Virus record (IMG/VR): IMGVR_UViG_2822819870_000002
Location: 1-64,000 of that record
Source: an uncultured virus (IMG/VR IMGVR_UViG_2822819870_000002)
Lineage: Duplodnaviria; Heunggongvirae; Uroviricota; Caudoviricetes
Direction: 5' to 3' (one strand)
Length of the DNA stretch: 64,000 nucleotides
The stretch's first letter is position 1. Every line of letters begins with the position of its first letter. Of the stretch, positions 17,771 to 40,333 are shown piece after piece. The notes under the pieces are model-generated. The model made no database searches. It saw only the letters and a program-made list of their open reading frames with translations, and was not told where the DNA came from. A program made the position numbers and the translations under genes.

Positions 17771-17917
17771 ATTTCAATATGAAATAAATTTTGTTAGCAC
17801 GATGTATAAAGGTGTTTATGTAGCCTAAATATTTGGGTGTGATTCATGCACATTGTGTAGGAGGCTTTTTTCATAAGAAAAGACACCCATATTTGAGTGT
17901 CTTTTCCGATAGTTTTT

Positions 17918-18025
17918 TTAGCAGAAACAAGCAGCTCCAACAATGATTAATAATATAAACAATACAACTAATAAAGCAAATCCTCCAGCAAAGCCACAGC
18001 CGCCGCAACTACCACCAAATCCCAT
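17918..18025 (-). CDS. YjcZ-family small sporulation protein (35 aa)
   Basis: MGFGGSCGGCGFAGGFALLVVLFILLIIVGAACFC with RBS AAAGGAGG; below the ORF-track cutoff. Confidence 0.9.
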   Translation of the reverse strand: MGFGGSCGGCGFAGGFALLVVLFILLIIVGAACFC

Positions 18026-18424
18026 AATAGTTCCTCCTTTAAATCGGAGGGGAAAACAAGGGTTCACTCATGTATTTTAACGGATTCAATTTACTGTATG
18101 TTTTTACGCATGAATTGAGCAAGTCCTTTTGAAAATAAAGAAAAGACACCATAAGGCGCCTTCCTTTTAGGTAGATAAGACTTTAGTTTTCCAATCTAAA
18201 GAAGTTTTGTATCAGCTCTTTGAGAGTATATCATAATATCCGAATGATTTTTCATGCATTATTACATACCTCTACAAACACCTCTATTTTCCATTTGATA
18301 AAATATAATCCTAATATTACCAAAAATATAATAAATGTTTCTATAAATTCAAAATATTTACAAAAATAATAAAAGTGATACAGTTAAGTTGTAATCTATA
18401 AAAACTATTAAAGGGGGATTTATT

Positions 18425-18706
18425 ATGTTTAAGAAATTAGTAGTAGGAGCATTAGCAACTGGTATTGCATTAACAGGAGGAATTGGAGCTGCTTCAGCTG
18501 ATACGCAAAAAGATGTGAGCTCTCCGAAGCAAGCAACATGTTCAATTCCTTATGAGTATTCTAATGGTAAATTCAAAAGAACTCTTTATCACTCAAATGG
18601 AGTATATGCTAATAGTTTTAATGAAAATGTTTGTGGCGGAACGATTACGTGGTATTTAAAACATGTTCAAAATGGAGTTGCTTTTTACGAAGGTAATTTA
18701 AAATAG
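18425..18706 (+). CDS. Secreted LCI-fold antimicrobial peptide-like protein
   Basis: Signal peptide; SNGVYANSF...ITWYLK...FYEG resembles LCI. Confidence 0.7.
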   Translation: MFKKLVVGALATGIALTGGIGAASADTQKDVSSPKQATCSIPYEYSNGKFKRTLYHSNGVYANSFNENVCGGTITWYLKHVQNGVAFYEGNLK

Positions 18707-19001
18707 TAGATTTTTCGAACCTCATTTATTGAGGTTCTTTTACTTTTAGTTTTTAAACTGATTCCCCATAAAGAAAAGACACCCAAAGGTGCCTTCCTCC
18801 GACTTGAACCATCTTAATTTTGAAAAATGGCATTGAAGGAATTTCTTTATTTATAACTATATTAGGGATGTTAATAATGGTATTTTATAGTGATATGAAA
18901 AAATTAATTATTAATGAATTTAAAATAAAAAGAAGACCGAACNNGTTCGGTCTTCTTTTTATTTGTTTACTTGTTTTCTTGGAAAACTTAATTAAAGTTT
19001 C

Positions 19002-19295
19002 TTAATTATTACTTGTTCGCCATCCTTCATAATGTCCTGTCCATGAATTTTTACTTACTTCAGTTGCTCCTTTTAAATACCAAGTCACTCCATCCCACTC
19101 TTTTACAGTAGGTATTTCCCCTTTTGATTTGTAACCAGGAAAGTCTTGTTTTTCTTTTTTCTTAACAAAACTTTTTTTATTATCAATCGTTTTTAATTTT
19201 ACACCTGTATCAGTAGGTGTTTCCGCAAATACTCCTCCAGCACCAGATAACATAATTCCAGTTGCTAATGTTCCAATTATTACTTTCTTGAACAT
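19002..19295 (-). CDS. Secreted LCI-fold-like protein (second paralogue)
   Basis: Similar signal peptide MFKKVIIGTLATG; DGVTWYLK...WTGHYEGW. Confidence 0.6.
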   Translation of the reverse strand: MFKKVIIGTLATGIMLSGAGGVFAETPTDTGVKLKTIDNKKSFVKKKEKQDFPGYKSKGEIPTVKEWDGVTWYLKGATEVSKNSWTGHYEGWRTSNN

Positions 19296-38144: not shown

Positions 38145-38146
38145 TT

Positions 38147-38986
38147 TTACCAGTCCTCTCTTAATTCATCAAAAACAATTATTTTAGAGAATAATATGTA
38201 TTGCTCATAAGTTTCACCAATATTATTTTGAACGATAAACTCTATAAGTTCACTTCTTTCGGTCTCTTTGCTAACAATAATATGTTTAATGTGCTCAAAT
38301 TCAAAATTCAACCACAAATCAGGACATTGGACAATAGCTTGTGAATAAGTAAAATAACTTCTGGGATTCATCTGCTCTTGACTAATAATTAAGGGTAATT
38401 CCGTTTCTACATGCTCAACATTAGGTATATATCTCCATTCTTTTTCATCATGAAAATTCCTTATAGCTATTTCTCGGTGATTATTTGTTAGCATTTCTCC
38501 ATCAAGAGGCTTCATATACAATAGATCATGTAATAAATAATTATTATAGTCATTGTTTTCATCATTTTTTTCTGGTGAATTATTAATAGCTTTACTAAGA
38601 ATAACACTAAAATCTTTACGTAAATTTGAGTGTTGATTAATATAATGAATTGGCTGAATTCCTTGTCTTATACCCCACTTTTTACTCAATCCAATCCCAT
38701 ATGAACCGTAATTCACCATATGTGGTATAAGTTTGTTTAAATGAATATCGCAAAAACAGCTCATAGGAAATGCGATTTTTTCCAATTCTTCAATTTTCAA
38801 GTAACCTATTTTTTCTTCGTAATATCGAGGTAGAATAGCCTTTTTCAATAAAATATCTTTAAGGAATTCTATTCTATTCATAAACTTAAACAAAACATTT
38901 GCACTTTGTAATGGTCTGATATAAGAAGTCTCCTCCTTGGTTTCGGGTTTTTGTTCAAGTTTAATATGCATATTTGTTTCACCCAT
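38147..38986 (-). CDS. abiGi: AbiGi-family abortive infection protein
   Basis: PRYYEE, CFCDI, YGSYGIGLSK.W, QPIHY and EKEWRY motifs. Confidence 0.9.
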   Translation of the reverse strand: MGETNMHIKLEQKPETKEETSYIRPLQSANVLFKFMNRIEFLKDILLKKAILPRYYEEKIGYLKIEELEKIAFPMSCFCDIHLNKLIPHMVNYGSYGIGLSKKWGIRQGIQPIHYINQHSNLRKDFSVILSKAINNSPEKNDENNDYNNYLLHDLLYMKPLDGEMLTNNHREIAIRNFHDEKEWRYIPNVEHVETELPLIISQEQMNPRSYFTYSQAIVQCPDLWLNFEFEHIKHIIVSKETERSELIEFIVQNNIGETYEQYILFSKIIVFDELREDW

Positions 38987-39473
38987 TCGACTTCATCTCA
39001 TTTCTATAAAATATTCCATCTTTAATATTAAACTCAATTATTAGCATTTTACATAGCAAACGAGAAATCAATACTTCATTATTGTTTCTGCTATATTTGA
39101 AAGGATCTTTTCTAATACAATAAGAAACGCAAAAAGAACTGTAGAAATCCCTACAAGTTCTTTTTTAGATAATGCAAAAAAATTACAACAAACTATCTCA
39201 TGTTTATCACTACACGTCCTTGTATATAAACCTATGAAAAGATTTGATAAAAATTTAAAAGAGACCTACAAATAAAATAATTATATTTGAGGTAACACCA
39301 CATCGCCATCGAGCAAAAAGAATGTATCCATAAAAAGAAAAAAACACCATCCTTTCCTATGATTTCTTAGAAAGAATAACGCCTTTTTCTTTTTAGGGGT
39401 TATTTTGTCTTGTTAGCTTGATAGCGATGTGGTTCTACTCCTTATAAAGGTTACAAAAATCTTTCAAATAGCT

Positions 39474-39806
39474 CTAACTCGCACAATGCTTCCCGTTAAT
39501 ATAATACGCTGATTCTGTGAAAACTGTAAATACAACCTCTACTTCTGGAAGTCCAAAAGCCATTACATATGTAGTAATGGCCTTGGCAAACCGATCACGA
39601 ATTTCCTGTCCACGCTCGAACCATTTCACTTCAATAAGTGGAAACGCTTCTATTTCCTCTTCATTGAATACGAACGTAGAACTTGGTAGTTCCAACGTAA
39701 AATTATCCGTACCACACTCACAAATCTCTGCGAGCTCTTCTACTAATGGCTTGCTTATGCGTTTTAATTGTTCAGTAGTAATTCCACGAAACACAACATG
39801 TGGCAT
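39474..39806 (-). CDS. DUF1904-family tautomerase-like protein
   Basis: N-terminal MPH; EVKWFERGQE and YYING motifs. Confidence 0.8.
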   Translation of the reverse strand: MPHVVFRGITTEQLKRISKPLVEELAEICECGTDNFTLELPSSTFVFNEEEIEAFPLIEVKWFERGQEIRDRFAKAITTYVMAFGLPEVEVVFTVFTESAYYINGKHCAS

Positions 39807-40333
39807 GTGAATCCCTCCGTTAAATAGCTTTATATTTGCTCACATCATAGCACAATTTATTTTGCTGCACTAGAATCTATTAGTACATTTCAATGACATT
39901 CTTAAGAATGATCATATGTTATTGAAGCAATACATGTATTGTAACTATTTAAAACATGCGAGAGCTTGGTAATTGGGTAAATAAAAAATACTTTATCATT
40001 CTCCCTGTAAGGAGGCATGAGGGGGGCCTCTATTAGGAAAGGGATGGTGCGCTTATATATTTTTTTTAAAAAAAGACACCCTAAGGTGCCTTCCTCCGAC
40101 TTGAACCACTTTAATTTTAATAATATGTATTGGACTCCCATCCGAATATTATTTTACCATGTTAAGTAATTTTATGCATTGAGAAATACGGTATACCTCT
40201 TTATTTGAACGCAAAAATCCCTAGAGGGGCTAGGACTTTTTGACAGAATGAAAATGATTTTAAAAAAGGACTTATATAACGTAACATATGAATGTTTCAT
40301 AAATGTATCGTAAAAGTGAACAAAATCTATATT

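Follow-up and report, generated by a model that had tools for sequence, protein, structure and literature searches.

T4-type phages carry PeSLs, motifs that combine a promoter with a stem-loop, in hyperplastic regions where recombination shuffles the genes that the motifs flank; the accessible part of their description proposes exchange by homologous recombination through circles and speaks of 'mobile regulatory cassettes' (PMC2839356). Here we analyze a repeat with a predicted terminator core from an uncultured caudovirus, IMG/VR record IMGVR_UViG_2822819870_000002, a contig of 77,656 bases flagged as a virus record, whose first 64,000 bases constitute the window. Co-oriented copies of this repeat separate accessory genes in a cargo region of the contig, and our comparisons support the repeat as a marker of the junctions where cargo blocks differ between related phage-plasmids. 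On balance, we think it likely that the element is a PeSL-like regulatory terminator repeat that both sets cargo modules apart transcriptionally and allows homologous recombination to exchange them, and that it is not an integron.

By analogy, T4-type PeSLs would be the closest match in how the element works. As far as the accessible description of PeSLs allows the comparison, both are conserved intergenic motifs of ~100 bp built on a terminator stem-loop (here predicted in silico), with a sigma-70-type promoter element in PeSLs and an extended -10-like box in our long forms; both are concentrated in the hyperplastic or accessory part of the genome (here all 12 window copies lie in 18.1-40.2 kb), and in both, close relatives differ by insertions, deletions and replacements that have their ends at the motif. 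Several features differ. The host here is Gram-positive and the carrier a temperate phage-plasmid. Its promoter-like box precedes the terminator and would therefore yield a short RNA instead of restarting transcription; the box comes without a -35 and is absent from short forms. In addition, many copies are the terminator alone, all copies have one orientation, and the family also occurs on large non-phage plasmids and in chromosomal clusters.

Integron attC sites are imperfect inverted repeats with R and L boxes and extrahelical bases, and integrons comprise IntI, attI and promoterless, co-oriented cassettes. Our array resembles integron arrays, including the highly similar Vibrio cholerae repeats, in that co-oriented repeats bound mostly single-gene units in a long array, and in that one end of the repeat is constant while the other part travels with the cassette. 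It differs in having no IntI among the 62 open reading frames (ORFs) scanned and no attI, in showing no R/L boxes or extrahelical bases in the consensus and folds as read by eye, and in carrying cassettes that face either way and bring upstream regions of their own; crossovers, moreover, appear spread over the element.

Two kinds of dispersed repeats also come close. SPRITE, according to the accessible text of PMC3049150, combines a stem of 18 bp with a long T-rich tail; it is found chromosome-wide, with 63% on the leading strand and an enrichment in the gaps of convergent gene pairs. Within what that text covers, the likeness is that of a Firmicute terminator-like repeat of ~100 nt near gene 3' ends, with no empty sites or target duplications found; unlike SPRITE, our repeat has a stem of ordinary size and forms co-oriented arrays in accessory regions of mobile elements, at gene-content breakpoints. 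The accessible parts of PMC3184786, PMC6542083 and PMC6199540 tie the bcr repeats of group B (bcr4-bcr6) to strain-specific genes and synteny breaks, and place bcr4 and bcr6 on chromosomes and plasmids with a link to rearrangements. Compared by description only, and from those parts, the bcr repeats share with our element the limitation to the Bacillus cereus group, the intergenic position, a predicted secondary structure and the variable gene content around it.

Repeat copies and gene-content junctions

We call the contig a phage-plasmid on its predicted gene content, because Pfam scans find phage structural genes (portal, capsid, protease and tail genes, together with an endolysin) as well as ParA and replication genes (an FtsK/replication-relaxation pair), in addition to an AimR arbitrium receptor. 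The backbone shares 94-97% identity with NZ_CP126518.1, a B. toyonensis plasmid, and 85-91% with many further B. cereus-group plasmids of 53-87 kb. Backbone homology ends at 14,736-14,738 and restarts at ~43,600-43,670 in all eight relatives; the variable region is located between the ParA side and the AimR side.

Three approaches agree that the repeat is real. A 41-mer quoted in a preliminary description of this DNA occurs at seven places with up to three mismatches, versus 0 in 100 shuffles. A repeat-family search of the window gave families of 12 copies at 45 nt, eight at 75 nt and six at 105 nt, in the positions that the preliminary description lists. Finally, an nhmmer profile built from seven window copies and run against the whole contig at E<0.1 returned 12 copies, all on the minus strand and all within 18,134-40,211, with none elsewhere in the contig. 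The single orientation and the confinement to the cargo island, both asserted in the preliminary description, were thereby confirmed for the entire contig, while the strand it described was the plus strand and the functional reading lies on the minus strand. Its count of 14-15 copies stood in part: 11 copies are clear and one is marginal (19,596, E 0.069), but the three sites at 17,879, 27,867 and 28,976 are doubtful and were missed by the profile search of the contig. The first two are terminator-like hairpins with partial similarity to the repeat, and the third is a hairpin without similarity.

Related plasmid, viral and genome loci (labeled L001-L201) were used for comparison. In a profile search of nine long loci from eight related plasmids, 102 of 102 copies were co-oriented within their own locus; the profile found no copy in L006, a phage structural-gene locus. 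Likewise, all 18 viral contigs with at least two matches were co-oriented in a tally among 80 of 114 stretches listed. Larger replicons carry copies in both directions at far-apart places. The copies are intergenic, as first described, with the core overlapping an annotated or called coding sequence (CDS) in only 1 of 74 copies from six loci. Many intervals hold a single gene: 37 of the 70 inter-repeat intervals in these six loci contain one CDS, 14 contain two and seven none, and in the window 7 of 13 contain one. The early remark that stop codons lie a few bases from the hairpin was also borne out, at a distance of 10-14 nt, for the copies at 19,596, 22,728 and 28,157. The spacing of 262 to 7,371 nt with intervening genes rules out CRISPR, in agreement with the preliminary description.

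The arrays enclose 123 genes, of which 80 share the strand of the repeat and 43 face the other way. Of 74 copies, 44 have a co-oriented upstream neighbor and 49 a co-oriented downstream one. The promoter region of YjcZ genes follows the element in 28 copies, whose upstream contexts are many and different. In phages 0105phi7-2 and 250, the sole copy sits directly 3' of a leftward repressor or moron gene, and this single-copy site is the same position where the plasmid arrays grew.

Right after the T-run of many copies begins a second recurrent motif, which includes TTCGACA and a similar half-site ~10 nt further on. It is present in the window at 22657-22735, 29917-29995 and 33532-33564 (minus strand) and behind many copies in L001, L003, L004, L008 and L009. 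TTCGACA is presumably the reverse complement of the Spo0A '0A box', and its occurrence suggests that these cassettes may share a stationary-phase or sporulation-controlled promoter region.

The alignment of related phage-plasmids places gain and loss breakpoints on the repeat. We collected homology end-points from matches of at least 250 bp between the window cargo and its relatives, counting as a hit any end-point no more than 10 nt from an element. Seventeen of the 35 distinct end-points (44 of 71 raw) were hits, although elements occupy 6.8% of the region (binomial p ~2e-11); the test has some circularity built in, since homology between the repeats carries alignments as far as their own edges. 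Additionally, 40 flank pairs recur elsewhere at another spacing, 31 of them enclosing at least two elements in the longer form and 24 of these 31 being between different loci, with rows that are not independent because L004 and L005 are near-identical plasmids. A single repeat in one plasmid is often repeat-cassette-repeat in another. For instance, the flanks of the copy at 23404..23539 stand 5,125 nt apart with five elements in L167. Viral contig locus L125 has a single chimeric element, with the upstream flank of the 22,728 copy on one side and the downstream flank of the 21,648 copy on the other, and in the window the same two flanks are 1,122 nt apart, with two elements and an extra 1.1 kb cassette. 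Empty sites were found in 0 of 648 flank pairs, a count of low power with most loci being only 624 nt long. The earlier proposal of a cassette junction in an exchangeable hotspot is therefore upheld by the breakpoints and indels at the repeats, but not for its integron/attC mechanism, since the repeat is a plain terminator-like sequence without attC features.

The family reaches far beyond this contig. Its 126-nt long form occurs at 1,584 places on 546 plasmid records, 544 of them Bacillus, with up to 13 per plasmid; 170 of these plasmids are conjugative and 338 non-mobilizable, and they represent many backbones. Fifteen phage records match the long form, once each. The exact 24-nt core gave 94 stretches in species-representative genomes, all from the B. 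cereus group save one labeled Paenibacillus, and 114 stretches in IMG/VR viral contigs. Five whole genomes hold 8-21 matches each, clustered at few places including chromosomal sites, so arrays are not restricted to plasmids; the chromosomal clusters presumably lie in integrated prophages or islands. On one B. thuringiensis chromosome of 5.2 Mb (G001:C1) we noted ten matches, with clusters at 549-556 kb and 969-994 kb. Given the 546 plasmids, the chromosomal clusters and the single phage copies, the repeat is not peculiar to this 'defence island'.

Anatomy of the element and proposed mode of exchange

Read 5' to 3' on the minus strand, the core consists of a purine-rich run, a GC-rich stem (GGCACC...GGTGTC) around a 4-nt loop (TTAG or TTTG), and a T-run. 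In the consensus of 148 long copies and in the folds, the stem is perfect and 6-12 bp long. By these folding models the minus strand has a Rho-independent terminator as the constant part of the repeat, and transcription would presumably terminate at the hairpins. Consistent with this, the copies come up as minus-strand sites in a terminator scan, which counted 27 terminator-like sites in the region versus 7.9 +/- 3.1 in shuffles. Twelve of 15 window cores fold at -11.8 to -19.6 kcal/mol, and the stems at 20,300, 27,860 and 32,693 are decayed. Because 30-140 nt of identity is common to the copies, including the three with decayed hairpins, they appear to share common descent rather than to have converged.

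The 3' limit of the element is sharp at the T-run, whereas its 5' extent varies from ~35 to ~145 nt. Long forms make up 228 of the 364 collected copies, five of them in the window, and were aligned from 148 of 180 eligible unique long copies. They add ~100 nt upstream, namely a TGnTAAAAT box, a 6-bp hairpin and an AU-rich linker, which then leads into the terminator. The box varies to TATAAT, TACAAT and TAACAT with T1, A2 and T6 kept and TG in front; being extended -10-like, it may act as a promoter. The loop of the 5' hairpin is variable but mostly of the GNRA type, with GGGA and GAAA common. The hairpins are conserved, but we do not claim RNA structure as proven. One stretch of the element, 'GGTTCAAGTC', looks like a T-loop; a tRNA or att remnant was considered and rejected, as ARAGORN found 0 tRNA in the window and the flanks are unable to form a T-arm.

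We related the polymorphic columns of 197 long copies to clusters of their 40-nt flanks, a crude linkage analysis in which shared ancestry is uncorrected. From 5' to 3', association with the upstream flank weakens gradually: z is ~12 at the 5' end, 6-8 at the small hairpin, 3-7 in the linker and 1.6 in the loop of the terminator. For the downstream flank, the linker columns already show some association (z 2.5-4.2) and those of the T-run a strong one (z 5-15); the single-nucleotide polymorphism in the loop is associated with neither flank. T-run variants indeed travel with the downstream flank, at a mutual information of 3.82 versus 3.22 shuffled, with 0 of 500 shuffles as high. Such graded linkage points to crossovers or conversion tracts spread over the common sequence instead of one fixed point. 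On these sequence comparisons, homologous exchange is favored over site-specific exchange, though not proven.

We propose the following mechanism. The repeat would be a portable regulatory module placed behind or between accessory genes downstream of the leftward lysogeny operon, where its terminator would stop leftward transcription and insulate each module. Dozens of near-identical direct copies in the replicon and in co-resident relatives would serve as patches of homology. Between two such copies, homologous recombination or gene conversion would delete blocks, insert them through circular intermediates, or swap them, and every event would leave one chimeric copy. Integration of a circle at a direct repeat would produce uniform repeat polarity in spite of 43 of 123 genes on the opposite strand, exactly as seen. 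Candidates for the recombination proteins at work are RecA or, alternatively, the Sak annealing protein encoded by the element itself together with RecU. Our Pfam scan for recombinases covered 62 ORFs of the whole contig, 28 from the cargo and 34 from the backbone (backbone ORFs of at least 100 aa). It found no Phage_integrase or tyrosine recombinase match among them, as the preliminary description had stated, and the only matches of a recombination type were a serine resolvase, Sak, RecU and an IS4-type transposase. Sak (48234..48866, plus strand; PF06378, E 2.6e-51) is a candidate catalyst of short-homology exchange, with the RecU Holliday-junction resolvase (55736..56428, plus strand; PF03838, E 8.2e-46) as a candidate helper. 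The small serine recombinase or resolvase (60370..60954, plus strand; PF00239, E 2.9e-39) would be a candidate under the site-specific alternative only. The Sak and resolvase genes named in the preliminary description are thus both present, and the analogy to T4-type PeSLs drawn there fits.

RNA contigs from four runs of other strains cover several cassettes, with joints inside copies (18771 to 21655 and 18810 to 19905). Because gene orders differ in those strains, these joints are silent on circles; the RNA contigs carry no starts, ends or strands and are mute on promoter and termination.

Besides the circularity of the end-point test and the uncorrected ancestry in the linkage analysis, several observations weigh against the PeSL-like reading. 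The shortest common core, ~35 nt, is short for RecA-type exchange. The promoter part is affected in that no -35 is seen upstream of the TGnTAAAAT box, and a generic promoter scan of the region, which did not pick up the box, gave 104 hits versus 104.6 in shuffles, without excess. For both hairpins, the covariation test yielded 0 pairs with double-sided changes and 97.3% paired, equal to shuffles, with terminator columns that had been pre-selected by the search pattern. Finally, the upstream neighbor is divergent in 30 of 74 copies, so these copies terminate no annotated gene, within a PLSDB annotation that is incomplete.

The alternative that survives best, although we regard it as unlikely, takes the long form as primarily a small-RNA gene or common cis-regulatory leader, in which promoter, 5' hairpin, AU-rich linker and terminator would yield an ~85-nt RNA; its many copies would co-regulate the cargo, with recombination as a by-product. 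The constancy of T1, A2, T6 and the preceding TG across box variants is in its favor, and so is the 5' stem, which persists (92-97% of cells paired) below a variable loop and whose closing pair changes from U-G to U-A in 29 sequences and to C-G in seven. Two long forms stand apart from co-oriented gene ends, one behind the terminator of an FRG gene and one at the head of a unit; the former (40067..40211) has a fold z of -3.17, and the long form as a whole is kept in the majority of collected copies. Against a small RNA, besides the missing -35 and the covariation at shuffle level, stand the many copies that are entirely without the upstream part and the lack of an Rfam family: none reached the gathering score in the window, and none matched over the copies at E up to 10 (17.5-40.6 kb). 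Complementarity of at least 11 nt within the contig was limited to the copies' own antisense strand and AT-rich chance words of 11-12 nt. Moreover, the downstream gene is co-oriented in 26 of 36 long and 23 of 38 short forms, without enrichment, a result by which we also rejected an attenuator made of promoter, leader, terminator and regulated gene.

Somewhat less credible to us is an 'integron without integrase' of Firmicute phage-plasmids, in which the terminator hairpin would be a directed capture site where a non-tyrosine system, through Sak-type annealing at the hairpin during replication or by the small serine recombinase, inserts cassettes in a single orientation, and the long form would also encode a multi-copy small RNA coupling cargo expression to lysogeny. 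A truly integron-like system, in which a recombinase (the serine recombinase at 60370 or a host enzyme) reads the hairpin or palindrome and swaps at a fixed point, we consider less likely still. It would account for the uniform orientation inside arrays, the sharp 3' limit at a T-run whose variants follow the downstream flank, a minimal common core of only ~35 nt, and the switch in the L125 chimera, which falls within a few bases on the 5' half of its stem; the serine recombinase is also conserved in the backbone. However, no tyrosine recombinase is among the ORFs scanned, and the element is a perfect stem plus T-run of canonical terminator form, without R/L boxes or extrahelical bases. With 43 of 123 genes on the opposite strand and cassette genes that bring their own upstream regions, the cassettes are not promoterless and co-oriented. 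The gradual decay of linkage and the loop polymorphism unlinked to both flanks likewise speak against a fixed point, as does the occurrence of the element singly in phages and on both conjugative and non-mobilizable plasmids. Just as unlikely is a selfish terminator element similar to a miniature inverted-repeat transposable element (of the SPRITE kind), inserting itself intergenically while cargo differences are coincidental: it would suit a dispersed, short, many-copy repeat of one species group that is AT-rich outside the stem and whose copies share their 3' end but are cut back to nested lengths at the 5' end, but the alignments display no terminal inverted repeats or target duplications, the low-powered search for empty sites returned none, co-orientation in arrays and confinement to cargo are unexpected under free transposition, and flank pairs differ by whole repeat-bounded blocks instead of by the element alone.

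Individual copies and neighboring features

All copies described below lie on the minus strand. At the left end of the array, a divergent copy with a terminator hairpin of -19.3 kcal/mol, missed by the profile, directly follows the YjcZ-1 gene (17918-18067) at 17872..17915. The next, at 18135..18165, is a short copy consisting of the core only (nhmmer E 5.8e-5, profile positions 110-140; hairpin -14.1 kcal/mol). Behind the LCI-fold gene at 19002-19295 lies a copy with a ~55-nt common core (18767..18898; E 2.3e-26), whose upstream part is cassette-specific and recurs with other downstream neighbors in L004, L005, L116, L123 and L201. The marginal copy at 19596..19632 (E 0.069; hairpin -18.0 kcal/mol) would be the terminator of the YjcZ-2 cassette. 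We observed that the whole YjcZ cassette is duplicated (17914-18165 and 19637-19892, 88-89% identity; families D8, D10 and D17), the duplication spanning the gene, its upstream region and the flanking repeat copies.

Further to the right, the copy at 19862..19993 combines the core with an alternative upstream module (E 7.4e-25), and the long form at 20300..20433 (E 7.3e-34) has a hairpin weakened by a stem change (-8.9 kcal/mol, z -0.72). The long form at 21648..21755 carries a variant linker (E 1.2e-27) and is the downstream partner of the chimeric junction in L125. The cassette missing at that junction in L125 spans 21756..22727 on the minus strand and comprises a 279-aa ORF (21788-22627) with its own upstream region. 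It is followed by a short copy at 22728..22764, 14 nt past the stop of the ORF at 22776-23348 (E 1.1e-7), and by the long form at 23404..23539 (E 3.1e-34).

In the second half of the array, the site at 27860..27900 is a doubtful, decayed copy that the profile missed (71% identity to family D3; hairpin -5.7 kcal/mol, z -0.44). A short copy at 28157..28206 lies 12 nt past the stop of the ORF at 28200-28826 (E 1.2e-8; hairpin -19.6 kcal/mol). The long form at 29986..30118 (E 7.3e-36) is at the head of a leftward unit and has a divergent plus-strand gene as its upstream neighbor. The short copy at 32693..32733 (E 2.3e-11) has a degenerate hairpin (-6.8 kcal/mol, z +0.28). The last copy, at 40067..40211 (E 2.2e-35; fold -22.2 kcal/mol), is the long form behind the FRG gene's own terminator.

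By Pfam, the cargo genes comprise an IS4-type transposase, two YjcZ-family and two LCI-fold genes, an AspBHI-like nuclease, a second Mrr-type nuclease, a RES-HEPN protein, and AbiGi, AbiGii, DUF1904, FRG and SIR2-domain proteins. The IS4-family DDE transposase gene (14972-16462, PF01609; region 14737-16600) sits right where backbone homology with all eight relatives ends, 14,736-14,738, and is probably an insertion of an insertion sequence at the left cargo edge. It is followed at 16724-17770 by an ORF of 348 aa without a Pfam match, which contains three internal repeats of ~135 nt (family D9). Long perfect AT-rich hairpins with stems of 19-20 bp, unrelated to the repeat family, occur at 18923-18964, 25663-25721 and 36533-36577 and are probably bidirectional terminators; the one at 25.7 kb has weak, chance-level Rfam matches to plastid 3'UTR hairpins. 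A 73-nt direct repeat with 81% identity links the spacer behind the FRG gene (40264-40336) to the backbone (53730-53802; family D13). Two other sites carry repeats of families D4-D6: short tandem or periodic repeats with a 12-nt period in the backbone at 6.9 kb (6916-7057), and AAATAGGGAAA-type repeats at 13220-13575, just past ParA (12371-13201). Both are likely iterons or a partition site.

Relation to bcr repeats and implications

Two bcr repeats were set aside as identities of the element, both from the accessible parts of the bcr literature. For bcr18, strain HD521 has none (Table S2, PMC6542083), yet its plasmid pBTHD521-3 holds 16 profile copies; bcr5, at 310 bp and flanking a resolvase cluster, is by its description a different element. 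For bcr4-bcr17, the available data of PMC6542083 give no more than four copies each in HD521, counting 'integral' copies only, versus 12 long-form places on pBTHD521-3. These counts make identity with one of these bcr repeats less likely. In the literature searched, on bcr repeats, B. cereus plasmid prophages, phage-plasmid hotspots, PeSL and SPRITE and with the original bcr papers outside its scope, the element is not described in B. cereus-group phage-plasmids, and the accessible text of PMC8026635 and PMC11526630 mentions no such repeat. If a bcr repeat such as bcr4 or bcr6 already covers the element, the new part is the array structure and the breakpoint evidence.

In B. cereus-group phage-plasmids, defence, sporulation and antimicrobial genes stand in long runs that change fast, and the literature searched does not explain how such runs come together. 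One family of repeats with a predicted terminator core, found at junctions on hundreds of plasmids, in phages and in chromosomal islands, offers a concrete route of assembly. If the PeSL-like reading is true, the same sequence would insulate modules and supply the homology for swaps between co-resident elements, and in practice its copies would help to mark out the limits of cargo modules and defence hotspots in these genomes. The PeSL idea would then extend from lytic T4-type phages of Gram-negative hosts to temperate Gram-positive elements.

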